From IMG/VR virus record IMGVR_UViG_3300045988_081423: DNA of 64,000 nt; one strand, 5' to 3'. Numbering within the stretch: the first letter of the stretch is position 1; each line of letters opens with the position of its first letter. The notes under the pieces are model-generated. The model had not been told where the DNA came from. It worked only from the letters and a program-made list of their open reading frames with translations, and made no database searches. The position numbers and the translations under genes were made by a program. The stretch is from a virus. Below are positions 601 through 35,896 of the stretch, piece by piece.

Positions 601-1206
601 ATGGATATTTTTAGATATATTGAAGACATATCTTATAAACTCGGTTTAAAGGTTGCGAACTATTTCCATGAGGACAGTGATGGAATTGAAGAGACGCAAT
701 ACGGTATGTTTGCTATTTTAAGCTTTTTGTTTGAATTTGGAACTGGGCTTATTATATCGCTTATTTTTGGATATGTCAAGTATTTTCTTGTATTTCAAAT
801 TACTTATTGTTTTCTACGTTCTGTTTGCGGTGGTGAACACTGTAAGACATTTGCTTCTTGTTGGGCAGTAACAAACATTATCTCATTTATTGGAAGTATG
901 ATGGCTATTTTATTATCCGTAAATAATATGTTTGTAATGATTGGAGTTATTATTACATTTCTGTCATCTGTTGATATGTTTTATATTATTCCAAAGCCAA
1001 GCGAAAATTCTCCTAGTAGAGGAAGTAGAGATATTGAGTTTAAAAGACGTTATATTAAGGGAACTTGTGTGCTAATTTTCTTATCTTGTATTTTGGTGTT
1101 TTTTAATATGCAATTTGTTTCTGCTTCTATTTGCTCTGCCTATATTATGTGTTATATTATGCTTTCCAAATATGGAAAGAAATTTATGAATATGTTTAAG
1201 TTTTAA
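601..1206 (+). CDS. agrB: AgrB-family accessory gene regulator protein B (peptide-processing membrane protease)
   Basis: 201 aa with multiple TM helices. LRSVCGGEHCKTFASC matches the AgrB catalytic His/Cys spacing (S. aureus RRHAHGAHAPSSFWC). A downstream Pro-rich loop reads IIPKPSENSPSRG. Confidence 0.8.
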   Translation: MDIFRYIEDISYKLGLKVANYFHEDSDGIEETQYGMFAILSFLFEFGTGLIISLIFGYVKYFLVFQITYCFLRSVCGGEHCKTFASCWAVTNIISFIGSMMAILLSVNNMFVMIGVIITFLSSVDMFYIIPKPSENSPSRGSRDIEFKRRYIKGTCVLIFLSCILVFFNMQFVSASICSAYIMCYIMLSKYGKKFMNMFKF

Positions 1207-1212
1207 TTAATT

Positions 1213-1294
1213 AAAGACCAGAGGATAGAAACATTAAGCTGCTATCACCCATTGTTAGGAGATACAGGTTCTTTGGCTTGCCTGTCTGGTCTTT
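1213..1294. repeat. 10-bp inverted repeat AAAGACCAGA / TCTGGTCTTT enclosing about 62 nt
   Basis: Read directly from the sequence; followed by TTATTATTT. It could be a long-loop terminator for agrB or flank structure of the IscB element. No cloverleaf is present. Confidence 0.4.
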
Positions 1295-1303
1295 ATTATT
1301 TAT

Positions 1304-1651
1304 AATTGTAGTCGTACAATTGTGGGACGCTATAGGCTCTTTGTGTTCTATGATTGTAGGTATCTACAAACTATAAGAGTTTGTAGTTTCCATTAAATAG
1401 CCTACCAGACTTAGTTACCAGAAATGATAACTACGATATTTAGGTTATGACACCCTCGGTTGACGCAACAGACCGTCGCTCTGTCGTATATATTTAAGTT
1501 AGGTTGGAGTAATAGTAGCCTTGTGATATATACGCTAAAGCCTTTATATCATTGTCGAGTTGAGGTCGGAAAAGCTATGTGGTAATAGTATAGCAATACG
1601 CACAACCATTACATAAGTAATGGAGTTATTTTTACGAAAGGGGTGTCTAGT
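1304..1651 (+). ncRNA. candidate omega-RNA (IscB guide-scaffold RNA); 5' end uncertain
   Basis: About 350 nt without an ORF lie directly upstream of, and in the same orientation as, iscB. The stretch is dense in stems: TTGTAG/CTACAA, CTACAAAC/GTTTGTAG, TAGTTA/TAACTA, TGATATA/TATATCA, CCATTAC/GTAATGG. Confidence 0.55.
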
Positions 1652-2908
1652 ATGGTATATGTATTGAATATTGATGGACAACCGCTTATGCCAACTACTA
1701 GGCACGGTAAAGTCAAACATCTTCTAAAAGATGGTAAGGCTAAAGTAGTTAAGCGTTGTCCATTCACAATTAAACTTCTATACGAGACTCCTAATTGCAC
1801 ACAAGATTTAACTCTTGGGATTGATACAGGAAGTGGCGCAATAGGAACTGCCGTTTCTACCGATGATGGCGAAATAGTTTATATGTCGGAAGTAGTTGTT
1901 AGAAATGACATTACTGACAAAATGACTCAAAGGGCCAAATACCGCAGAAATAGACGTAGCAGAAAAACTCGTTATAGAAAAGCAAGATGGCTAAATCGCA
2001 AAAATTCAATTAAGAAGGATAGATTTAGTCCCACGATGGTAAGTAAACTCCATAGCCACGTTAAAGAAATAGAATATATCAAATCTATTCTCCCTATAAC
2101 TACTATGGTCTTTGAAACAGGAACATTTGATACTTACCTTATGAAAAATCCAAGCCTTGTAAATGAAAATGTAAGACATTGGGGATACCAAAAAGGAACA
2201 AATTATGGGTTTGAAAATACCAAGGCTATGGTTTTAAATCGAGATAATTATACTTGTCAGTATTGCAAAGGTAAACATAAAGATAGTAAACTGGAAGTTC
2301 ATCATATTGTGTTTCGCAGCAAACATGGTTCAGACGAAGAAAGTAATTTGATTACACTTTGTCATACTTGCCATAAGGCGTTGCATAGTGGTAAAATTAG
2401 TCTTAAATTAGAAGGTAAGGTCAAAGGGAATCTAAAATATGCTACACAGATGAATAGTATTCGTAAACAATTATTTAGAATCTACTCGGAAGCAATTGAA
2501 ACTTTTGGTTATATAACAAAGGCAAATCGTCTAAAACTTGGAGTAGATAAAGAGCATTTTTATGACGCTTGTGTTATTGCAACACATGGAAATAAATTTA
2601 GCGTAAGATGCAATTTATACAAAAAGAAATGTGTTTCAGATGGGGATTTTCAACAGACTAAGGGAGTTCGTTCTGAGCAGCGCATTCCAACGTGTAAAAT
2701 TCAGGGGTTCAGAAAGTTTGATAAGGTGAGATATTTTGGTAAAGAATATTTTATAAAAGGAAGGCTTTCTACTGGGTATGCAATACTTATGGATATAGAT
2801 GGTAATAAATCCGATTTTTCTTATATGCCGAAAGGTTTTAAAACGCCTAAAATTATAAATCTAAAAAGATTAGAAGCTCGTTCATCGTGGATAGTAATTT
2901 TTAAATGA
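1652..2908 (+). CDS. iscB: IscB RNA-guided nuclease (PLMP, split RuvC, HNH, C-terminal target-interaction-like domain)
   Basis: AAAGGGG RBS then ATG 1652 (the track start GTG 1643 is less likely). Motifs in order: DGQPLMPTT; LGIDTGSGAIG; RAKYRRNRRSRKTRYRKARW; MVFETGTFD; CQYC..EVHHIVFRSKHGSDEESNLITLCHTCH; HFYDACVIA; GRLSTGYAILMDIDG. Confidence 0.85.
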   Translation: MVYVLNIDGQPLMPTTRHGKVKHLLKDGKAKVVKRCPFTIKLLYETPNCTQDLTLGIDTGSGAIGTAVSTDDGEIVYMSEVVVRNDITDKMTQRAKYRRNRRSRKTRYRKARWLNRKNSIKKDRFSPTMVSKLHSHVKEIEYIKSILPITTMVFETGTFDTYLMKNPSLVNENVRHWGYQKGTNYGFENTKAMVLNRDNYTCQYCKGKHKDSKLEVHHIVFRSKHGSDEESNLITLCHTCHKALHSGKISLKLEGKVKGNLKYATQMNSIRKQLFRIYSEAIETFGYITKANRLKLGVDKEHFYDACVIATHGNKFSVRCNLYKKKCVSDGDFQQTKGVRSEQRIPTCKIQGFRKFDKVRYFGKEYFIKGRLSTGYAILMDIDGNKSDFSYMPKGFKTPKIINLKRLEARSSWIVIFK

Positions 2909-2948
2909 CATAAAAATAATTGTACGACTATTTTTGTGAGGTGGTCGT

Positions 2949-3215
2949 ATGATTATAAATGATTTAGCAACAATAGCAAATTCTGATTTAATATCAGGAG
3001 CTGCAAACATTAGTCAATTTATAAATGTCTATCAAGCGACTAAAGGTGCGACATCATCTCAGTTAAATACAGAGCTAATCAAGCAAAACCAGCATATTGA
3101 AAATAAACTTGACGAACAAACGAATATGTTGCTTGAAAAATTATTGTCTGAATTAAAGATTATAGAAGAACAAAATATTGAAATAATTAAACTTCTGGAT
3201 GGTGGCGTCAAATGA
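2949..3215 (+). CDS. hypothetical small coiled-coil protein
   Basis: GAGGTGG RBS. 88 aa with no TM segment. The C-terminal heptad-like segment EEQNIEIIKLL resembles that of the next ORF. Confidence 0.5.
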   Translation: MIINDLATIANSDLISGAANISQFINVYQATKGATSSQLNTELIKQNQHIENKLDEQTNMLLEKLLSELKIIEEQNIEIIKLLDGGVK

Positions 3216-4072: not shown

Positions 4073-6859
4073 ATGGAGGTATCCGATGTGATAGAACAAG
4101 AAATTACGTTGCTTACTAATGGTAGAATTTCTTTCCAGAAATGCGGGAATGGTCTACAGTTTGGATATTCTAAAAATCGTGGTGTATACAGTATAAAAGT
4201 AAAAACTTCTGGTGAATGGAATGGTTTAACGATTCGCGCATTTTGGCATATCCCGGACATTAAAGAGCCAATCACCTCTTTATTAGTAGACAATGTTATT
4301 AGAGTTCCTGCATTGGTTACTAGTTATAAAGGTGAGGGGAGGATTGTATTTGAGGGTTCCGATGGAGTCAAAACTGTAACGAGTGCAGACATTCGCTATT
4401 ATGTAAACAAAAATAGCGGAACCTGTGACGGTACAATTCCAGAACCGGGAACGCCAGCTTGGCAAGAGCTTGTTGGCACTGTAAAGAAATATTCCGATAC
4501 TGCTGTTGAAGCAAAGGAGTCTGCTAAAAAATCAGCGGATGAAGCAAAACAAGCTCTTGAAGATACAAAAGATGTAAAGAGTCAGGCTATTGAAGAAATT
4601 AATTCTTCAAAAACTGCGGTAATCGAAGAGATTGAGAACAAAAAAAATTTATCAATTGAAGAAATTAACAGTGTAAAAGAAGATGCAAAAGGAGAGCTAG
4701 AGACCCTTTGTGATTCTACCCGGGATTTTGCAAATCAGGCAAAAGAAGCCGCAGACAGAGCAAAAGCAAGCGAACTTGCCGCAAAAGACTCTGAATTAAA
4801 ATCTAAAGAAAGCGAAAGACTGGCAAGTGAATACAAAAATTCAGCTAATGAAAGTGCAAACGCTGCATTAAAATCAGAAGAGAACGCTTCAATAAGCGAA
4901 TCTAATGCGACCGAGGCAGCCAATAGAGCATTGATATCTGAAAATAATGCAAAATTATCTGAGACAGCCAGTGATAATAGCTCTAAAAAAGCATTTGATA
5001 GCGAAACAAAAGCAAAAGCATCCGAAATAAATTCTTCAAATAACGCTGTCAACGCAGAACACTCTGCAATAAATGCTGCGGCATCGGCTGATGCCGCAAA
5101 AGGCTCTGAGGACAAAGCAAAAACAAGTGAAATTATTAGCACAGCAAATACGGCAGAAGTAGCAAAAAATCTTGAAACAGTCAGGGATATTAAAGCCGAG
5201 ATTGACATCTTAGACGCTAATGTGTCGGCTAATGCGGCAAGTTCAAATGAAAATGCGAACAATGCAAGAATCAGTGCGGAGGCAGCAAAACAATCTGAGA
5301 CGAATGCTGCATTAAGCGAGGCGTCTGCTTTAGAGAGCAAAAATGCTTCTGCGGAAAATGCTGCAAAATCTCAAAATAACGCCTCTAACGCAAAAAATAG
5401 TGCAGATAGCGCAAAAGAAAGTGAAACAAAGGCACAAGAATATTCTAATTTATCTCAGTCCAACGCTAATGCTTCGAGTGAGTCTGCAAGTAATGCAAAA
5501 GCAAGCGAAGGTGCTTCAAAAAAGAACGCAGACGATTCTGCGGCTACCCTACAAGAACTGAAAGACGGAATTGCATCTGGAAACTTTAAAGGCGAGAAAG
5601 GTGACAAAGGCGACCCCGGCCCGGCAGGCAAAGATGCCCCGCAAATTGATGATACCACCGTGAACGACTCTGCCCCATGGAGCAGCAAGCACATCGTGGA
5701 TGTGCTCTGCCCACCGATGGAGGAGACCGGAAACCCCGTGACGTGCTACCCGGTGGAAAGTTATCCGCTGGGGGTGACTGCCAGCTGGGAACCGACGCAG
5801 GAAGGCAGCGGTGACCCATCGCCTGACAATGTTCGCCCAATTAAGGGCAGGGACAGCGTGACAGTGGAGCGGTGCGGGAAGAATCTGCTAAAATTAAATG
5901 AACGAATTATCGACAAAGAAACAGTGATACTCAAAGAAAACGACCTTGTTTTCCTGTCAAAATGTTTTCACGGCAAGGACGTGACGCTCACATTTGCCTG
6001 TGACACGAAAGATATTGTTTTCTCGGACACAGCGGAAAAATGGAGAAAAAGAATCGGATATGAATGTCATGGTTTTTTGGACGATGGAACTGAGGTATGG
6101 TCTCTCCAATGCTGGCTGACTGATGGACAAGACAACCTTACAAGAAATGGAAAGCATAAAAAAACTGTTACTTTGAAGATGCCGAACATTGTGAAAGGCA
6201 CGATTAACTTTTATGCTCAAAATATAAAATCCGGCACCTTCACAGCGTATGATTTTGGAATCTACGCGGGCGGCACATTGCCAGATAATCTTGCACAATA
6301 CAACGGTGTATCTGTGCCACTAGCCTTCCCCTCCACCATCTACGGCGGGACGGTGGATGCAGTGAGCGGTGAGAGCAGTAGAACATGGCGAACTATTACT
6401 TTGACAGGCGAAGAAAGCTCTCATATTTATTCGACAATTTTCTATCTTGATTTCAATAAAGACAGTTCCTTTGTGGCAGAAGAACCTGTTGACTTAGCAA
6501 CTGGCAAAAGCAGCCACTATCGCTATACGACATATGCGAATGATTCAGTAGGAGTCACATTAGATGGATATTCCGTGGTGTATTCCAGCAATGGCAAGTA
6601 TCCTATATCTGATGAGGGTTTACGAGAATGGAAATCCTACCTCGCCGCCCAGTACGCGGCAGGAACACCTGTCCAAATCGCCTACAAGCTGGCAACTCCA
6701 ACGCCTTTCACCGCAACCGGCGCACAGCCTATCTCTTCTCTGAGCGGCGTGAACACCCTAATGACCGACGCGAACAATGTAACCGTTACCGGCAGAGCAG
6801 ACCCCATCAAGCGCATCACTGACCTTGAGGACGCTGTGGCATCAATGACCAACACATAA
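4073..6859 (+). CDS. tail-fibre-like protein (N-terminal anchor, long Ala/Ser/Glu/Asn coiled-coil shaft, short G-X-Y run, GC-rich C-terminal domain)
   Basis: The shaft is about 400 aa of SAxxAxxSExxA-type repeats, followed by GEKGDKGDPGPAGKD and a globular C-terminus. GTG 4088 (GGAGGT 4075-4080 plus 7 nt) may be the true start. Confidence 0.6.
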   Translation: MEVSDVIEQEITLLTNGRISFQKCGNGLQFGYSKNRGVYSIKVKTSGEWNGLTIRAFWHIPDIKEPITSLLVDNVIRVPALVTSYKGEGRIVFEGSDGVKTVTSADIRYYVNKNSGTCDGTIPEPGTPAWQELVGTVKKYSDTAVEAKESAKKSADEAKQALEDTKDVKSQAIEEINSSKTAVIEEIENKKNLSIEEINSVKEDAKGELETLCDSTRDFANQAKEAADRAKASELAAKDSELKSKESERLASEYKNSANESANAALKSEENASISESNATEAANRALISENNAKLSETASDNSSKKAFDSETKAKASEINSSNNAVNAEHSAINAAASADAAKGSEDKAKTSEIISTANTAEVAKNLETVRDIKAEIDILDANVSANAASSNENANNARISAEAAKQSETNAALSEASALESKNASAENAAKSQNNASNAKNSADSAKESETKAQEYSNLSQSNANASSESASNAKASEGASKKNADDSAATLQELKDGIASGNFKGEKGDKGDPGPAGKDAPQIDDTTVNDSAPWSSKHIVDVLCPPMEETGNPVTCYPVESYPLGVTASWEPTQEGSGDPSPDNVRPIKGRDSVTVERCGKNLLKLNERIIDKETVILKENDLVFLSKCFHGKDVTLTFACDTKDIVFSDTAEKWRKRIGYECHGFLDDGTEVWSLQCWLTDGQDNLTRNGKHKKTVTLKMPNIVKGTINFYAQNIKSGTFTAYDFGIYAGGTLPDNLAQYNGVSVPLAFPSTIYGGTVDAVSGESSRTWRTITLTGEESSHIYSTIFYLDFNKDSSFVAEEPVDLATGKSSHYRYTTYANDSVGVTLDGYSVVYSSNGKYPISDEGLREWKSYLAAQYAAGTPVQIAYKLATPTPFTATGAQPISSLSGVNTLMTDANNVTVTGRADPIKRITDLEDAVASMTNT

Positions 6860-6869
6860 GGAGGTACAT

Positions 6870-7100
6870 ATGGCAATTAAATCCAAAGCCCGCCATGACC
6901 TGACGCTGCGCAGCATCAAGCGGGAAATTGCAGCAGGACGCGATGTTGCATACTGGTTGGATAAGGCGTACACCCATCTGGACAACGGCTTGTTGACCGA
7001 GGACGACATCGCAGAGGTGGAAGCCCTTGCGCAGGCGTACTACGATGCGCTAGACGCGGAGGACAAGGCGAACTCTGAACAGCAGCAGACTCAAAGGTAA
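6870..7100 (+). CDS. small protein co-located with the GC-rich fibre end (fibre accessory/chaperone?)
   Basis: AGGAGG RBS, 76 aa, GC-rich like the fibre 3' end. Function unknown. Confidence 0.45.
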   Translation: MAIKSKARHDLTLRSIKREIAAGRDVAYWLDKAYTHLDNGLLTEDDIAEVEALAQAYYDALDAEDKANSEQQQTQR

Positions 7101-11564: not shown

Positions 11565-12096
11565 AGGTATTTCTATTTTTGACTACGCTACCACGGAAAC
11601 CTATGATGAAAACCGTGGCGTTACTTACCCTGCATGGACGGTAGTTAACCCAGAAGATATTAAGATGGTTAACCGTACAATTGATAGAAATGCAGTCCCC
11701 GTAATTTATTCTGTTAAAACTCCAATCCAGTTGAAGTCTGCTATGTTCAGTAATATGCGTGATTTGATTACTGATGGACGAGTTAATTTACTTGTTGATA
11801 GTCAAGAGGGTCTTGATTATATGATAAAAAACTATCAGTATTATAAGATTGAAGATGAGGATTTAAAGAAACGTCTTATGAATCCTTATGTACAAACTAA
11901 TCGGCTTGTTGATGAGGCAATTAGTTTGGAACAGGTGGTTACTCAGGGCTATATTAACCTAAAGGAAAAAGCTGGGAATCGTAAAGACCGTGTTATGTCT
12001 TTGGCTTATGGTCTTTGGTATGCCAAGTTATTAGAAGACCAATACATTAATAAACAAGAAACCAACAGTTTATTAGACTGGACATTCTTTGGTTAA
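11565..12096 (+). CDS. terL: terminase large subunit, exon 2
   Basis: The frame is open from 11566 with no start codon or RBS. It continues the nuclease domain. The spliced product is 591 aa. Confidence 0.75.
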
Positions 12097-12114
12097 ACTA
12101 TAATAGAAAGGTAG

Positions 12115-28360: not shown

Positions 28361-30181
28361 ATGGCACAAGCACAAAGCGATTTATTTAGTTTTCTAATTA
28401 CACCAGAATTTGATACAAAAGATGTTACAGATAGCGCACAAATACTACAAAAAGAGCTTGAAAAAGTTGCAGAAAAAATATCAATACAAATAAGTAAAGC
28501 AATGGGAAAGGGTTTTTCGTTCCCATCTGGTTTTCAACCAAAAGATATTAATGAAGTAACAAAATATATCGAAACCCTTGGGGGCAGCGTCAAACGTGTT
28601 GGAACTGTCATAACTTCTTCTTTCAAAGATGCAAGCGGAACAGTAACAACCCTAAAACAAAACATCAACGACGCTATAAATTCTGCTCAGTTGGCAAGCC
28701 TACAATCTATGAGTGGAAATCCTAAGAATATAGATATTATAAATAAACAGTATGCTCAACTAAGAAGTTCTAGTGCTACATACACTGGAACGGAACAGGT
28801 TAAGCAACAAAACGAATTAGAACAACAGATTATTAAATCTTTGCAAGAGCGATATAGCTTAGAGGGTAAAATATCAGACGCAAAAGCAAGCGGAAACAAG
28901 ATTACAGAAACTTATTATACGCAACTAAGAGATATTGCTGTTGCAGAAGAACAACAATTAGAATCACAATATAAAGGTTCTCAAACACGAATAAATTCCG
29001 TGAAACAGCAGTTGTCTCTTGAACAACAATTGCGACAACAAAAGGCACAATCTACTGCGGAAGAAAATAAAGCTGTTGAGGCCATAAAACAATACGCAAA
29101 ACAATATCAGACTGTCAAGCAATTAGAGAGCAAAGGTCAACAAAACACTCAGGCTTATACTGATGCTAAAAATGCTTTACAGCAGTTAACAAATACTTTA
29201 ACAACGTATGGTGTTAAAGTTGTAACAAGCTCCGACGGCACAACAAAACTTGTAGCACAACAAAATTCAATGGCTGACAGCTCCAATAAGGTTAAAACAG
29301 CGTTGGACAATGCCAATGGCAGTTTAGTAAAAACTGATACTGCACAAAATTCCCTATCGCAATCTATTCAGTCTAGTGTAGAGAACTTTATTAAATATCA
29401 GGTGGCTATGGAAGCCATCAACAAAATCACTAGCGAATTCACATCTGCAATTTATGATATGAACGAAGCCATGACACAGGTTCGTATGGTTACAATGGGT
29501 AGCTATGAAGATACTGTGGCATTGGCTGATAGTTATACTAAATTGGCAAAGCAACTTGGTACTACTACGACCACAGTTGCAGAAGGTGCAGATGCTTGGT
29601 TAAGACAGGGTTATAATGCTCAAGAAGCAATGGAGATGCTAAAACAGTCAACTACGTTGGCTGTTGTTGGTCAATTGGACGCAAGCGAGGCGACTGACCA
29701 ACTCACTGCAATCACAAAATCCTATAATGTAGCTGTAGACGATACAAGCAAAATCGTAGATAAACTTGTGCAAGTAGACCTTTCCTACGCGGCCAGCACA
29801 GGTGAAATTTCTACAGCATTACAGAAAGTCGCTAGTTCTGCTGGACAGGCGGGGTTAGGACTTGATAAACTAATCGGTCTAATTACTATTTCTGAGGAAA
29901 AGACTCGACAAGCGCCAGAAGTTATTGGGTCTGCTTGGCAGAGTATCATCTCGCGTATATCAAAAATCACGGCAAAAGTAGATTTGGATGACCTCGTTGA
30001 TGAGCAAGGTATAACCCACACAATCAATGATGCAGATAAAGTTCTATCCAAATACGGAATTACACTAGTTGATACAAACGGTAAAATGCGCGAAATTGGT
30101 ACTGTTCTTGATGAAATCGGTGCAAAATGGAACAGCATGAGCACTCTTGAACAGAACCAGTTGGCTTATGTTGTCGCCGGT
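28361..30181 (+). CDS. tail tape measure protein, exon 1
   Basis: AGGAGGTGGG RBS. Coiled-coil-rich, with the conserved TMP core (...LGTTTTTVAEGADAWLRQGY...QLAYVVAG). The frame is lost after GGT at 30181. Confidence 0.75.
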
Positions 30182-30235
30182 TCGATAAGTGCTGGCGTAA
30201 AACGTACTTAATTGACGGGAAACCCCTTTAGAGTC

Positions 30236-30265
30236 TTGACAACTAAGTTATTATAGTGATATAAT
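30236..30265 (+). promoter_or_regulatory. sigma-70-like promoter inside the intron, upstream of the HNH ORF
   Basis: TTGACA at 30236-30241, an 18-nt spacer, and TATAAT at 30260-30265. Confidence 0.45.
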
Positions 30266-30525
30266 AATGGTTGGAAGTAATCAATCCAAGTATAGTAAAA
30301 TAGTCAAGAATTGGGCAACCCGCAACCAAGCAACTATGAAAATAGTTGAAGGCTCAACGACTATCCAGTTAGCGTTAAATTAACGCAATAGGAGTAGGGC
30401 GCAATTCGCTACTGCGTGGGTGAAAACCCCTTAAATCGAAATGGTACGGCATATCATAGATATGCAAGATATAGTCTATTCTCATGCAAAAGCATGAGCA
30501 TTTTTATGTTATATTGAGGTTATAA

Positions 30526-31518
30526 ATGGGAAAAGTAATCAGATGGACAGACGAAGAAATTCAATTATTAAAAGAGCATTATCCTAATGATTCATGGGAT
30601 AATATTTTATCTTTTATTCATAGAGAAAAAGGAAATATTATTACCAAAGCAAGTAAACTTGGAATCGTAAGGAATAGTCCAAATAAAAAGATTGAATGGT
30701 CTGACGAAGAGGTTGAAATTCTTAGAGGTGTTTATCTAACAACAAGGCTAGAAGACATTCCGAGACTGCATTTACCAAATAAATCCAAAGATGCCATTAT
30801 TAGAAAAATGGGAGAACTAAGGTTGCTAAAATCAAAACCTTGGACACAAGGAGAAATAGAAAAATTTATCAAATTATATCCAAACACAGACAATAAAGAA
30901 CTTTGTAAAATATTTGGAAGAACAAAGAATGCCATAATCAACGAATCTCAAAAACTTAATTTATATAAAAGCAATAGATTCACAGAGGAAGATATTGCTT
31001 TTATAAGAAACAACTATCTTAAAATGTCAGATTTTGAAATCGGAGAAATTCTCGGCCATCATTGGAGAGTCGTAAAGGATAAGCGTTTGTCTTACGGATG
31101 GAAACATTCTGAACCAATCTTAGGACAAGGATATAAAAGTATTGTTGAATTTTGTCGTAAAAGCACACCCGGTTGGAGAAATGAGAGTATTGCATATTGT
31201 AATCATAAATGTGTAATCACAGGAGAAGAATTTGACGACGTTCATCATCTTTATTCTGCGAATCTCATTATAAAAGAAGTCGCAGACATTATTCCTCTTG
31301 AACCAAACGCTTCTCCCGAAATGTATGACGAGGAATATCTTGGAGAGATTCTTGACTTATTTGATAAGAAACAGCGAGAGTATGGACACGGAGTTTGTTT
31401 GACAAAAGAAATTCATACGATGTTTCATAAAGAATATGGATTCGGGAATAATACAAAAGGACAGTTTCTTGATTTCGTAGATAAACATAGTTTTAAATTA
31501 TTAGTCGATATAACATAA
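30526..31518 (+). CDS. HNH homing endonuclease with four SANT/Myb-like W-x-[DE]-E-E repeats
   Basis: Repeats: IRWTDEEIQLLKEHY, IEWSDEEVEILRGVY, KPWTQGEIEKFIKLY, NRFTEEDIAFIRNNY. HNH region: CNHKC..DDVHHLYS...CLTKEIHTMFH. Confidence 0.75.
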   Translation: MGKVIRWTDEEIQLLKEHYPNDSWDNILSFIHREKGNIITKASKLGIVRNSPNKKIEWSDEEVEILRGVYLTTRLEDIPRLHLPNKSKDAIIRKMGELRLLKSKPWTQGEIEKFIKLYPNTDNKELCKIFGRTKNAIINESQKLNLYKSNRFTEEDIAFIRNNYLKMSDFEIGEILGHHWRVVKDKRLSYGWKHSEPILGQGYKSIVEFCRKSTPGWRNESIAYCNHKCVITGEEFDDVHHLYSANLIIKEVADIIPLEPNASPEMYDEEYLGEILDLFDKKQREYGHGVCLTKEIHTMFHKEYGFGNNTKGQFLDFVDKHSFKLLVDIT

Positions 31519-31564: not shown

Positions 31565-34500
31565 CGCAACGTCTTTATTGCTGCTATGGAGGATTATAAC
31601 CGTGTATTAGAAGCAACTGAAGTTGCAGAAAATGCAAACGGTGTTGCCGCTGAAAAGATGACGGTTTATAACGAGTCTCTTGAAGCTGCACAAAATAGAT
31701 TAACCGCAAGTGTTCAACAATTTGCACAGGATTCTAACCTTGATAGAACCCTTGCATTAGCCTACGACGGTCTGTCCAAAATCGTAGAAATTCTAAATAT
31801 TTTACTAAATAAAATTCCAGTTTTAAGTCCACTAATTAAAGCCCTTGGTGTTGCTCTAGCAACAGCTTTCGCAGGCAATATACTTAAAAATATATGGGAG
31901 ACATCCAATTTAATCGGGCAACTTCCAAGTCTTGCGATGACTGCCACAAGTGCGATTGGGGCGCTAAATACAACATTATTTACAATAGGTTCTGTTGCAG
32001 TACCAATATGGGGTGTAGTAGCAGCCATTACCGCCATTGGAGCTGTTGCGAAAGTTGCATGGAACGCTTGGAAAGATGCTCAACCAGAGGCACAAATCAA
32101 AAAAGCAAACGAAGCCTTGCAAGAGAGCCAACAGAGTCTTGATGAGACAAATAATAAAATAACTGAAATTAACAAACAAATCTCAGAAATCAACTCTAAA
32201 GGTACTTTAACTTTAGCAGATGAGCAACAAAAAGAGAACCTTCAAGAGCAACTTGATTTGCTCGAAGAAATTAAAACAACACAAGAAGCTATAAATAAAG
32301 AAAAATCTGCACAGGCATTATCTGCCGAACAAGCAAAAGCTAAAAAAATGACACCATATAGTTCAGAAGATGTGTCTCAGTATCAAGCAGGGCTTCAATC
32401 TACACAAAATTATGCGACCGCAATATCTACTGAAAATATAAACGAATTGATTGCGGCATATCAACAACTTGAGAAAGAAAAGAAAAATCTGAACTCAGCA
32501 GACGAAGATTATGCAGAACAATTAAAAACCAACGAACAACTAACATCTTCTTTTACCACAAAGTTGTTAGAGCAAAAACAGTCTTACCTAGATGAGATGA
32601 AGGCTCTTTCAAATTTAGGAGATACAAGTTCAGAAACATATAAGGCGTTACAGCAAGCTGTTGACATGATAAATGTCACACTTGACCCGTCTAATTTTGA
32701 AACACTTAAAGTCCAAAATCTAATTGACACATCTGGAATTGAAGACAAAATTAAAGAGGCTGTTCAGGCTGGCGATAAAGCCGGTGGCGAAATGGCTACG
32801 GCATACGCTAAGAGTTTCGCAGAAAAAATATTAAAAGATACTAGCATGAAACAATCGTTTGCTGAGGCAATGGGTGTCAACGTAAACGAGTTAAATATAG
32901 ACAATTTAACACAAGAAATCCTCAGCAAATTCCAACAGATGTATAATAATATTTCTGATGGATACAATGATGTTGTACAGAATGTTTTTAGTAAAACAGA
33001 TGTTGTTAGTGCTTATGCTAGTATTCTTGAAAAAGTAAACGAAAAGACAAAGGTTTTGTCAAAAGCATACAAAGAATTGACGAAACAGGGTAGCTTAACG
33101 ACTGACACAACTCAAAAACTTATCGAACTATACCCAGACCTTGCAAAACAACTTGATTTTACAAGTGGTAAAATTACTCTCAATGTAAACGTTCTTAAAG
33201 ACCTCTATAATGCAGAATACAAGTCCGCAGAAGCAACGGTTAAGGCAGAAATTCAAAAAACAAAAGCTACTATTGCTGGCGTAGAAGCAAGAATTGCGGC
33301 ACTAGAAGCAGAGAAACAAAAACTTCTGCAAACTTTAGATGCGGGTGTTTTAAGCGGTCGAGATGAGGCGTTTGCCGAAAAGCAAATGTTGCTTCTTGAG
33401 CAATCTGGTTCTAAAGCTAATGCGAATTTGGAAAAAGCGGAAGAGCATTTAAAAGATTTAAATAGTTTACTTGGTCTTGTTCAAAACACTGCAAAATCTG
33501 GGCTAGGCTCCGGTACAAAGGATAGCTCTTCTGGGAAATCTGGTAAATCTGCCGCTGATAAAGCTGCAAAAGAATTTGAGAATGAAATCAAAGAAAAGGT
33601 TCAAAACCTAAAGAGTATTGTACAGTTGTATTCTGAGAATGCTAACTGGGATGACCCAACTGTCATCAAAGAGTTCCAAGACAGATACGACAAAATCTTA
33701 AATGAAGTCATAAACGACCCAAAAGCCAGAAAAGTTCTAGCTGATGCGTTTAATCTTGATATAAGCAATATGCCAGTTGAACAACAAATTCAAGAACTAA
33801 CAACGCTATGGCAAAAACAAGCTGGTACAATTCAAGAATCGTATCAAAAACTTCTAAAGAATCTAGCTAAAGAAGATTTGAGTTCTGCCAAGGCTGTTAT
33901 AGAAAAATATAAAAATGGTATTTATGGCGCTTGGAGTTCTGACGAAGCACTGAATGCAGCAAAAGCTGATTATCAGAAGTTTATTGACAAAATCACCAAT
34001 GACGCAGATTACAGAGCTGCTATGGCAGAAGCGTTAAACCTTGGGGATATTAGTGGAGAACCAGTAGAGAAACAAGTAGAAGCTGTTATAAACGCCTTAC
34101 TAAAGTCTACTGGTACACTTGATAACACCCAGCAAGACCTATATGATGACGCTTCTAAGAATATCAAAGCATTACAAGATGAAATCGAGGACATGATTGA
34201 TACAGCAATCGGTTTGCTTGAAAAGGCTGGCGATTTTCTGTTTGATATGTTGGATAAGATTTCTGACAGATATGATGCTCAGATTGACAATCTTGATAAG
34301 ATTTCTGACGAACTTGATGACCAAAAAGATGCCTTTGAAGATAAGATTGACCAGCAAAAAGAACTCCTGAAACTTCAAAAAGAAGAGATGGATAACGCTG
34401 ACGAGCTTGCTGAAAAGAATAAATCTATTGCAGATATTGATGCCCAATTGATGGAATTGCAATATGACAATTCAGCGGAAGCACAGGCTAAACGTCTTAA

Positions 34501-35896
34501 ACTTCTCGATGAAAGAGCACAAAAAGAAAAAGACCTTGCTGATTGGCAAAAAGATAACGATTATAATACCAAGATTGACGCCCTTGATAAAGAAAAATCA
34601 GAATATGAAAAGACAATTGAAGCAGAAAAGAAAGCAATAGAAGCACAAAAACAAACTTTGCAAGATGCTCAGAAACAATTTGAAACTACTCTGGGGAATA
34701 TCCAAAATGGTTTCAATACATTTATTAAAATTCTTAGTAGTGATTTTGTCAAGAACCTAATTAGCAAAGCACTAATTGGCACTGGTCAAGATACAGTGAC
34801 ACAATTGCTTACTGGTTATAATAAATTATTTGGTACTGGTATTGATTCTGACGTAACTGGGATAATCAAAGAAGGATATAAAAGTCTAGCAGATATTGGT
34901 AGTGACACGCTAAATAATGTTTCAAATTATAATAACAGAATTGTCAAGAGTGCGACAAAAGGTATAAAAAGTATTATCAGCAATACGACAAATGGCGTTA
35001 AGTCTATTTTTGATTCCAGTAATGGATTTATGAAAAGATTAACATCTAATGGTATATCTTCGCTAAATACGATTGGGACAAATGGCAAGGGAATTATTTC
35101 CAGTCTAGCTGGAACGGCAAATAGTTTACTGAGCAATTTGAATAGATTTGCCAGTGGGATAGGGCAGATTGCAACCAAAGGCATATCTGGTATATTCTCT
35201 GGTATTGGAGGAATGACTAGTGGAGTTGCAGGCGGTATGGGAGGCATTGGTTTAGCTGGTGCTGGCCTATCTAGCGCACTTCCAATCGCTGCAATAGGAG
35301 CGGGTGTTTTGTCTGGTGCTTTGGCAAATGTTAGTACATGGTACAATAACATCAAGCTCTGGAAAGACAAAGACAAATCTACTGGTAAAAAAATACTTGG
35401 AACAATCGGAAATCTGATACTCCCTTTCTTGCCCGGTGGTATGCTGATATCAGCCGGGAAAGCCCTATCTAGTCTATTTAAAAAACACCATACTGGTGCT
35501 GATTATGTAAAAAAACAGAATCCTATGTTGGACAAAATGTTAGGACTCGGAAGTGACGAGACTGTATCCATTCTAAAAGTTGGAGAGGCTATTGTGCCCA
35601 CATGGGCAAATGGAGCAAATAGTTCCGGCAGCAGTAATAGATTTACGGGAAGTCCATTTGGAAGTGCTGTAGACTCTGCCGTTAAAACCGCAAGAGTAAA
35701 TACCAGAACGTACTCTAGTTCCAACAGCTCTTCTATTAATATCTCTATGCCTATTAATATTCAGGGAGACGCAGATGCTTCTACTGTAAACTCTTTGAGG
35801 AAAGAGGCAGACAACATTGTGAATAAAGTTCTAAAAACTATCAATAACCAAACTAGAATTGGTGGCTATAGAAATATAAAAGCAGCAACGATTTAA
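31565..35896 (+). CDS. tail tape measure protein, exon 2
   Basis: Open frame with no RBS at the track ATG 31586. Contains long coiled coils, a Gly-rich TM segment (GIGGMTSGVAGGMGGIGLAGAGL) and a C-terminal domain. The spliced TMP is 2050 aa. Confidence 0.75.
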   Translation, partial: RNVFIAAMEDYNRVLEATEVAENANGVAAEKMTVYNESLEAAQNRLTASVQQFAQDSNLDRTLALAYDGLSKIVEILNILLNKIPVLSPLIKALGVALATAFAGNILKNIWETSNLIGQLPSLAMTATSAIGALNTTLFTIGSVAVPIWGVVAAITAIGAVAKVAWNAWKDAQPEAQIKKANEALQESQQSLDETNNKITEINKQISEINSKGTLTLADEQQKENLQEQLDLLEEIKTTQEAINKEKSAQALSAEQAKAKKMTPYSSEDVSQYQAGLQSTQNYATAISTENINELIAAYQQLEKEKKNLNSADEDYAEQLKTNEQLTSSFTTKLLEQKQSYLDEMKALSNLGDTSSETYKALQQAVDMINVTLDPSNFETLKVQNLIDTSGIEDKIKEAVQAGDKAGGEMATAYAKSFAEKILKDTSMKQSFAEAMGVNVNELNIDNLTQEILSKFQQMYNNISDGYNDVVQNVFSKTDVVSAYASILEKVNEKTKVLSKAYKELTKQGSLTTDTTQKLIELYPDLAKQLDFTSGKITLNVNVLKDLYNAEYKSAEATVKAEIQKTKATIAGVEARIAALEAEKQKLLQTLDAGVLSGRDEAFAEKQMLLLEQSGSKANANLEKAEEHLKDLNSLLGLVQNTAKSGLGSGTKDSSSGKSGKSAADKAAKEFENEIKEKVQNLKSIVQLYSENANWDDPTVIKEFQDRYDKILNEVINDPKARKVLADAFNLDISNMPVEQQIQELTTLWQKQAGTIQESYQKLLKNLAKEDLSSAKAVIEKYKNGIYGAWSSDEALNAAKADYQKFIDKITNDADYRAAMAEALNLGDISGEPVEKQVEAVINALLKSTGTLDNTQQDLYDDASKNIKALQDEIEDMIDTAIGLLEKAGDFLFDMLDKISDRYDAQIDNLDKISDELDDQKDAFEDKIDQQKELLKLQKEEMDNADELAEKNKSIADIDAQLMELQYDNSAEAQAKRLKLLDERAQKEKDLADWQKDNDYNTKIDALDKEKSEYEKTIEAEKKAIEAQKQTLQDAQKQFETTLGNIQNGFNTFIKILSSDFVKNLISKALIGTGQDTVTQLLTGYNKLFGTGIDSDVTGIIKEGYKSLADIGSDTLNNVSNYNNRIVKSATKGIKSIISNTTNGVKSIFDSSNGFMKRLTSNGISSLNTIGTNGKGIISSLAGTANSLLSNLNRFASGIGQIATKGISGIFSGIGGMTSGVAGGMGGIGLAGAGLSSALPIAAIGAGVLSGALANVSTWYNNIKLWKDKDKSTGKKILGTIGNLILPFLPGGMLISAGKALSSLFKKHHTGADYVKKQNPMLDKMLGLGSDETVSILKVGEAIVPTWANGANSSGSSNRFTGSPFGSAVDSAVKTARVNTRTYSSSNSSSINISMPINIQGDADASTVNSLRKEADNIVNKVLKTINNQTRIGGYRNIKAATI

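Follow-up and report, generated by a model that had tools for sequence, protein, structure and literature searches.

An IscB-omega-RNA cassette of human gut phages that lacks a transposase gene and one transposon end and may spread by RNA-guided homing

We analyzed a stretch of viral DNA of 64,000 nucleotides (IMG/VR record IMGVR_UViG_3300045988_081423; hereafter the window) that carries an iscB gene preceded by an omega-RNA. Positions 1340-2959 form an IscB-omega-RNA unit derived from an element of the IS200/IS605 type (ISC element). We consider it probable that this immobilised unit spreads by RNA-guided homing between co-infecting phages. The evidence for this reading comes from an intact nuclease gene, a guide that matches the empty site of sister phages, a guide-mismatched second copy of the target in all inspected filled loci, and a cassette that is nearly identical in otherwise diverged phage genomes.

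The open reading frame (ORF) at 1652-2908 (+) encodes an IscB of 418 amino acids, and every catalytic residue is kept. The protein has a PLMP/RRXRR N-terminus, a split RuvC domain, an Arg-rich bridge helix, an HNH domain, and a conserved beta-rich C-terminal domain. In the ORF listing the frame extends from 1643 to 2908 with a GTG start; the homologous start is the ATG at 1652, which is preceded by the ribosome-binding site (RBS) GAAAGGGGTG at 1636-1645. The full Pfam model RRXRR (PF14239) was matched with an E-value of 6.9e-51 and the Pfam HNH model with 6e-12. Searches of the PDB retrieved IscB chains (OgeuIscB 7utn/7xht and others) with E-values of about 1e-42 for the single sequence. With a profile, E-values as low as 4.5e-65 were reached. 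IsrB and small Cas9 proteins ranked below the IscB chains with weaker scores. In an alignment with 18 relatives sharing 40-81% identity, the RuvC residues D58, E155, H302, and D305 and the HNH and zinc ligands C202, C205, H217, H218, N232, C237, H241, and H245 were invariant and present in the window protein, in which C240 likewise counts among the conserved HNH residues. D58 aligned with the LGID motif of the OgeuIscB chains. Within the C-terminal 100 residues, G338, G352, D357, K358, V359, G363, R371, G375, and L379 were invariant in the same alignment. The ratio of non-synonymous to synonymous substitution rates of iscB was 0.05-0.10 against relatives with 77-81% amino acid identity. An earlier note on this DNA had proposed an intact IscB with its domains in the canonical order and without obvious decay; the Pfam and PDB matches and the invariant catalytic residues agree with this, and all motifs quoted there are present. 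The protein also matched phrog_119, annotated as 'HNH endonuclease' (4e-50); IscB-like proteins are common in phages, yet are labelled only in this way.

Upstream of iscB, a covariance-model search identified the Rfam family HEARO (RF02033), which spans positions 1356-1570 from end to end (76.3 bits, E-value 8e-15). The omega-RNA scaffold, which represents the right-end (RE)-derived end of the element, extends over 1356-1635 (+), with further stems following the HEARO core, and is closed by a terminator-like hairpin at 1606-1623 and a subsequent U-run. Homologous scaffolds scored above the Rfam gathering score in 16 of 20 relatives (87-109 bits), and an RNAalifold consensus of 16 sequences contained 69 pairs, 47 of which showed double compensatory changes. 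The search result and the covarying pairs support the proposal of the earlier note that the stem-rich leader of about 350 nt located 5' of the ORF is the omega-RNA.

Similarity to thirty-odd relatives in other phage contexts begins at the start of the scaffold, whereas the sequence 5' of it differs by context. Because similarity to relatives elsewhere starts only at the scaffold, the left boundary was placed between positions 1355 and 1356, and the guide corresponds to flanking DNA. This is as described for IscB elements, in which the guide is taken from the flank 5' of the scaffold (PMC10055086). Canonical relatives with 79-83% identity possess both ends, and some of them also carry tnpA. After iscB or iscB-tnpA they end in a left-end (LE) segment of about 50 nt abutting ATAAA, the hairpin of which matches the scaffold hairpin and was present in L008-L010, L015, L016, L022, L036, and L241. 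In the autonomous canonical relative L241 the order is omega-RNA, iscB, tnpA, LE, and ATAAA. The RE/scaffold hairpin is present in the window at 1364-1386, and no LE hairpin matching it was found within 1.9 kb downstream of the window cassette and its near-identical copies. With TnpA of L014 and L031 as queries, tblastn gave no significant match in the 64 kb, as the earlier note had stated for a TnpA gene, and a second iscB was likewise not detected by tblastn in the 64 kb. Similarity to the canonical elements stops just past the codons for SWIV, which is the point where tnpA starts in L241. The window cassette fails as an IS200/IS605 transposon because it has neither LE nor tnpA. Since tnpA and the TAM-side (LE) end have been lost, where TAM denotes the target-adjacent motif, TnpA transposase should no longer move the unit. 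As a separate observation, the IscB proteins of L006 and L023 end with ...EKYIQKQG, the C-terminal motif of the neighbouring TnpA in L014, L031, and L241; these endings imply internal deletions that would have fused iscB to the tail of tnpA.

The guide segment of the omega-RNA comprises 16 nt at 1340-1355 (+), directly 5' of the scaffold boundary. We compared it with 25 empty sites, one from GenBank entry MT835481.1, 12 from IMG/VR contigs, and 12 from metagenome contigs, all of human gut origin and some of the contigs possibly duplicated between the collections. These sites consist of ATAATTGTA, a loop with the RBS, one of the three segments TGTTCT, CGTTCT, or GTCGT, and ATGATT/ATAAATG. Nine of them (L001, L084, L085, L087, L093, L095, L105, L109, and L113) carry the T allele, to which positions 1342-1355 (TGTGTTCTATGATT) are identical (14/14), followed by ATAAA. 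The C allele, found at six sites, differs from the guide by a single base, at position 12 counted from the TAM, and in the G allele, found at ten sites, only the seven TAM-proximal nucleotides match; ATAAA follows in both. A canonical relative was available in a filled (...CTTATA/GTGAAC...GAATATTT/ATAAATAAG) and an empty state (...CTTATA/ATAAATAAG), which differ without target duplication, and ATAAA directly after the insertion point was also seen in the comparison of L119 with L124 (empty site in MT835571.1). OrufIscB, an IscB from the gut, uses the TAM NTAAA with ATAAA being optimal, and has an effective guide of about 13 nt with an optimum at 14-15 nt (PMC13180657). In view of these requirements and the perfect match of 14 nt beside ATAAA, the T allele should be a competent target. 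The TAM of the window IscB is probably ATAAA, and the guide appears to be aimed at the allelic empty site of sister phages, which provides a target where the earlier note had named none. Within the 64-kb window no further guide match was found. The exact 19-nt sequence of guide plus TAM, TGTGTTCTATGATTATAAA, occurs in the coding region of two unrelated large viral contigs (L243, 3153-3171; L244), probably by chance, though it is a potential off-target.

Beyond the iscB stop codon, the short remnant CATAAAA (2909-2915, +), recognized by comparison with canonical relatives, joins the cassette to phage DNA; at this point the canonical relatives run on into tnpA, the LE hairpin end of about 50 nt, or both. 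A resident second copy of the hairpin in the phage 5'-untranslated region (5'-UTR) comes next, at 2916-2959 (+), and includes the start codon (2949) and the RBS (GAGGTG) of the following gene; the native hairpin is present in two copies in filled phages. The right copy contains a mutated protospacer, AGGTGGTCGTATGATT (2939-2954), next to the TAM ATAAA (2955-2959). Only seven contiguous TAM-proximal nucleotides of it match the guide; positions 8 and 9 are mismatched. The protospacer was of the GGTCGT type in 16 and of the GGTTGT type in 10 of 26 filled loci and was always mismatched to the guide. The right copy restores RBS and ATG for the downstream gene at 2949-3215 (+), which encodes an 88-aa protein without Pfam or PHROG match and whose RBS-start region overlaps the target in empty phages. 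The left copy retains the 14-nt T-allele segment and the 5' arm of the native hairpin, ATAATTGTA, which was located at 1302-1310 (+) by alignment with empty sites. Self-cutting is not expected, because the left copy precedes the scaffold and has no TAM and the right copy is mismatched from position 8 on. The sequences at 1302-1310 and 2916-2924 form a 9-bp direct repeat, and its copies delimit a 1614-bp indel relative to the empty phages. A strong, conserved hairpin around RBS and start codon is formed by the native region, ATAATTGTA...TATGATTAT (2916-2957 in the window; empty sites in L001 and L081-L115; -12.5 to -18.5 kcal/mol, z -3.6 to -7.3), and its stem alleles are compensatory (TACGAC/GTCGTA versus TAGAAC/GTTCTA). 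In the G allele, which is common among empty phages, the stem is broken (TAGAAC/GTCGTA) and looks recombinant.

The cassette was analyzed for its distribution among phages. The exact IscB protein occurred on 28 contigs, and more than 40 variants with 98-99% identity were found on up to 41 contigs each. In every full-length near-identical variant (more than 40, on well over a hundred contigs) the ORF was intact with all catalytic residues; a further listed variant, P0051, is shorter (394 aa). The locus was polymorphic at one site, with 25 empty and about 30 filled cases. All 26 inspected filled loci, which come from many independent studies, had the cassette at the site used in the window, with a single junction architecture and single-base variants only, and the guide was identical in all 23 filled loci with a readable left junction. 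Compared to the window, the 1644-bp cassette showed three differences in L002 and nine in L003 (0.2-0.5%), whereas the flanks of the same pairs diverged by 6-10% from 60 bp on the left side and 75 bp on the right side onward, and by 10-28% over 1-1.4 kb. The divergence of the cassette was 10-50 times below that of DNA located 100-400 bp away. Near-isogenic filled and empty phages were also found: the window and L109 (T allele, empty) showed no difference in 447 nt upstream and four in 1500 nt downstream, and L002 and L108 (C allele, empty) showed none in 650 nt upstream and none in 739 nt downstream. The low cassette divergence together with the isogenic pairs indicates that recombination has carried a block composed of left copy, cassette, and right copy into three or more backgrounds, and two of these otherwise occur with guide-matching alleles. 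Judged by these comparisons, the cassette has spread among phage populations by recombination.

A promoter-like site, TTGCCT-17-TATAAT, was detected at 1278-1306 (+) by a consensus scan (10 of 12 matches), and the identical sequence is present in all empty-site phages. This site is a candidate promoter that might feed guide, omega-RNA, and iscB; biogenesis of IscB omega-RNA requires transcription initiating outside the element (Meers et al., PMC10055086). Just 5' of the cassette, at 1214-1293 (+), lies a skipping-rope RNA (RF02924; 47.7 bits versus a gathering score of 36.7), which is kept in all empty-site relatives and overlaps the promoter-like site with its 3' end. A whole-window Rfam search in gathering mode misses the skipping-rope RNA, for which a permissive search shows the above-threshold score, and omits the sub-threshold HEARO.

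For the proposed homing, read-through from the phage promoter-like site at about 1278-1306 would yield an RNA with the guide (1340-1355, effectively 14-16 nt) and the scaffold (1356 to about 1635), and iscB (1652-2908) would be translated off the same transcript. The ribonucleoprotein would recognise TGTGTTCTATGATT plus the TAM ATAAA, i.e., the RBS and start-codon region of the next gene in cassette-free sister phages. T alleles of co-infecting relatives would be cut, and C alleles probably as well. Repair of the cut susceptible allele from a cassette-bearing genome would then copy in the left target copy, the cassette, and the resistant right copy. The outcome would resemble the behaviour of homing endonucleases (non-restorative homing, marker exclusion). 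Expression, cleavage, and a role of the nuclease, rather than of plain recombination, as driver of the spread are steps that we infer from the sequence comparisons.

Several observations weigh against homing by this unit. The HEARO score of 76.3 bits is lower than the Rfam gathering score of 83, the guide matches the T allele over 14 of its 16 nt rather than all 16, and no source is apparent for the target duplication or for the 31 nt at 1311-1341. A C-terminal TAM-interacting domain could be confirmed neither by sequence nor by a structure model. The C-terminus alone gave no IscB match in PDB sequence and profile searches, and the IscB profile aligned to HfmIscB up to profile position 363 of 420. 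An AlphaFold2 (AF2) model built from a shallow alignment was poor, with an overall predicted local distance difference test (pLDDT) score of 39.5; residues 350-410 were beta-rich with values of 64-79, and Foldseek with this poor model retrieved IsrB (8dmb) alone, with an E-value of 9e-5 and a meaningless TM-score. The GRLSTGY motif, for which the earlier note had proposed a target-interaction-like domain, is present, but the identity of this domain was confirmed neither by the PDB searches nor by AF2. Furthermore, the phage flanks are highly mosaic, so that recombination and hitch-hiking could spread a passive insert, and, as far as sequence alone can tell, the isogenic pairs could reflect either gain or loss of the cassette.

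The strong mosaicism of the flanks on their own and the HEARO score below the gathering threshold are also what would favour a passive relic, that is, a single insertion of an IS200/IS605-IscB element that lost LE and tnpA and is now shuffled as an inert passenger by general recombination, with no part played by the nuclease. Such a relic would likewise show the match of guide and target, which is expected for any IS200/IS605 insertion, as the guide is flank DNA (PMC10055086). We nevertheless regard this explanation as unlikely. The ORF and its catalytic residues have stayed intact in more than 40 full-span variants on well over a hundred contigs, and DNA at a distance of 100-400 bp is 10-50 times more diverged than the cassette. 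The resident target copy is guide-mismatched in 26 of 26 loci, a need that a dead nuclease does not impose, and independent truncated relatives always break just past the iscB stop codon.

Less probable still is that the unit serves primarily as a weapon or exclusion factor between phages which cuts the genomes of competitors with T or C alleles, with copying of the cassette being incidental, or, in a variant of this idea, that host or other mobile DNA is targeted. The target lies in a region that a competitor needs (RBS and start codon of a conserved gene), the resistant G allele is present in about 40% of the empty phages, as an arms race predicts, and competitor killing by phage homing endonucleases is documented (review PMC13565253). 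However, the isogenic filled and empty pairs show transfer of the cassette between backgrounds, and as for other DNA as target, the 64-kb window holds no further guide match and the only two exact matches of guide plus TAM outside the family, both of the same sequence and on viral contigs, look like chance. A still mobilisable insertion sequence that spans 1304-2930, is moved by TnpA in trans, and has the 1304-1321 hairpin and the inverted 12/13-mer (2918-2930) as its ends can hardly be upheld. The two sequences do enclose the indel, and each is an inverted copy of the other, but terminal inverted repeats are absent from IS200/IS605 elements, whose ends instead carry subterminal hairpins of the type seen in the scaffold. 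Both supposed ends duplicate the phage 5'-UTR hairpin present in every empty phage, similarity to relatives elsewhere starts at 1356 and not at 1304, all filled loci are at one site, and the predicted donor joint was not found in IMG/VR.

The left junction was inspected further. The 31-nt segment at 1311-1341 (+) replaces the 18-nt loop/RBS part of the empty-phage hairpin and was conserved in filled loci with a readable left junction, except for one single-nucleotide polymorphism and a T/A variant in the hairpin loop. At 1304-1321 (+) the sequence forms a perfect 7-bp hairpin (AATTGTA-GTCG-TACAATT), the stem of which is kept with the loop GTCG or GACG in a 94%-identical cassette (L117). The 3' part of this hairpin, 1309-1321, is the exact reverse complement of 2918-2930 (13 nt), and this inversion suggests a fold-back or template-switch junction. 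The earlier note had described the hairpin and an inverted 12-mer as bracketing the unit. Both exist, the repeat being 13 nt long (1309-1321/2918-2930), and they arise because the 31-nt stretch opens with a 13-nt inverted copy of the right 5' arm. They are pieces of the phage's own 5'-UTR hairpin, and this origin and the true left boundary at 1355/1356 rule them out as transposon ends. A staggered cut by IscB was rejected as source of the target duplication, since it would not yield a left copy that runs without loss to the TAM-proximal base, as the observed one does. That a tandem duplication already existed and was entered by canonical insertion appears unsupported: the donor joint TTCTATGATTATAAAAATAATTGTA predicted for this case was not found in IMG/VR, and the TACGAC-type hairpin was present in none of the 25 empty sites.

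The closest relatives of the window IscB (88-94% amino acid identity) are located at at least five different phage sites, and everything 3' of iscB has been lost from the start point of tnpA on. Five truncated relatives at different sites keep the full iscB and break just after it. P0044 shares site and junctions with the window, P0045, P0047, and P0049 are located at other phage sites, and P0048 at a second site found in this phage family; the window (between 12096 and 12097) and about 20 relatives carry no insert there. This empty 'site 2' extends over 12080-12106 (+) in the window, and in L121 and L122 a sister cassette is located there right after the stop codon (12096) of a 143-aa gene. 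A degenerate site-2 pattern matched more than 100 unrelated contigs, and the family members were retained by a context filter. The site-2 cassette (2190-3800 in L121; L122) encodes an IscB with 89% amino acid identity; the P1 stem of its omega-RNA looks disrupted, and the empty site-2 alleles have no ATAAA TAM. Right of the cassette, the window site, site 2, and the L119 site each contain a partial TAM-proximal target copy with an allele differing from the guide, although the right-hand CATATA in L119 could equally be element sequence joined by microhomology and not a target copy. It is conceivable, although we consider it doubtful, that such truncated IscB-omega-RNA cassettes without LE and tnpA constitute a class of free-standing, RNA-guided homing endonuclease genes that recurs in gut phages. 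They might originate when repair of an IscB-cut site copies the donor to the end of iscB only and is then closed by microhomology. If true, a transposon would have been converted to a fixed gene-drive cassette carrying its own resistant target copy.

IS200/IS605-family (ISC) elements encoding IscB together with an omega-RNA (HEARO) were reportedly described by Altae-Tran in 2021. The window unit resembles the OgeuIscB, OrufIscB, and GstIscB elements in domain order, catalytic residues, a HEARO-type scaffold 5' of the ORF, and a flank-derived guide, and it shares the ATAAA TAM with OrufIscB (NTAAA, PMC13180657). ATAAA is also the reverse complement of TTTAT, the TAM of TnpB2 of G. stearothermophilus, whereas the IscB of the same study used TTCAT (Meers et al., PMC10055086). 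In contrast to ISC elements, the window copy has no LE hairpin and no tnpA and lies between two diverged copies of the target region; it resides in a phage, and its spread appears to be confined to one locus and to occur by recombination. With 418 aa its IscB is shorter than OgeuIscB and OrufIscB (about 495 aa).

In its arrangement, the locus resembles the free-standing Seg and Mob homing endonuclease genes of T-even phages (PMC13565253): an endonuclease gene is present or absent at a fixed locus between conserved phage genes, its target adjoins the gene in phages without it, the carrier is protected by target differences, and the unit is near-identical across divergent backgrounds. Unlike Seg and Mob, recognition in the window would rely on an RNA guide of 14-16 nt and a TAM instead of a protein, the unit descends from a transposon, and its homing is what we infer. 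Protein and RNA belong to the known IscB/HEARO family, and the locus seems to act like a free-standing phage homing endonuclease gene with RNA-guided recognition. According to a review, a TnpB-driven gene drive of IS605 between plasmids, termed 'non-restorative homing', has been described (Mears et al. 2025, bioRxiv, cited in PMC13565253). As summarised there, the mechanism that we propose is alike: the empty site at the orthologous position of a co-resident replicon is cut by an OMEGA nuclease and then receives a copy of the element, independently of TnpA. In that summary the drive is a laboratory experiment with TnpB, plasmids, and an intact insertion sequence, whereas in the window the nuclease is IscB, the setting is phage populations in nature, and the cassette has lost its end and brings along a resistant target copy.

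The natural role of IscB and TnpB has been demonstrated mainly in laboratory bacteria and plasmids (PMC10055086; PMC13565253), and homing into co-infecting phage genomes is named as a theoretical possibility in a 2026 review (PMC13565253). In the literature searched, we found no description of natural IscB homing among phages. The locus offers a concrete natural system with a defined guide and TAM, three target alleles (perfect, single mismatch, and resistant), and near-isogenic phages with and without the cassette. In addition, transposition should no longer be open to the cassette. Whether an OMEGA nuclease works in viruses as an RNA-guided homing endonuclease or as a factor in competition could therefore be tested directly with this locus. 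The locus could also reveal the path from an accessory gene of a transposon to an independent drive element, a step that bears on ideas about how Cas9-like effectors left transposons. In practical terms, it provides a compact IscB of 418 aa from the human gut with ATAAA as probable TAM.

With respect to the genomic neighbourhood, the earlier note had placed the element between agr-type signalling genes and a fibre cassette. AgrB is encoded upstream of the cassette at 601-1206 (+) (Pfam, 8e-26), so that this side was confirmed, and for the fibre side only weak PHROG tail-fibre matches of the downstream 928-aa protein were obtained. An ORF of 43 aa (374-505, +) before agrB could encode an AgrD-like propeptide, which would make up a quorum-sensing module in a gut phage. 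Within the C-terminal half of the 928-aa tail-fibre-like gene, the GC content rises to 52-53% at 5500-7000, compared to about 32% elsewhere, which suggests that a receptor-binding module was acquired horizontally. The start of the 88-aa gene next to the cassette had, as its only match in genome contigs, a 24-nt identity in an unrelated coding region of a Bdellovibrionales metagenome-assembled genome (L116, 2458-2481), which looks like chance. Several phage-borne relatives of IscB (L007, L010, L016, L018, and L019) adjoin arrays of tRNA genes, and a Pistol ribozyme (57 bits; L009, 174-246) precedes one by about 2.5 kb. Finally, the window contains a group I intron (RF00028) at 30157-30498 (+), which scored above the gathering score with 54.8 bits and is followed by an ORF at 30526-31518 for a protein of 330 aa with an HNH-like His motif. 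Intron and ORF split an apparent tape-measure gene (28361-30211 and 31586-35896) and would represent a second, classical homing element in the same phage.

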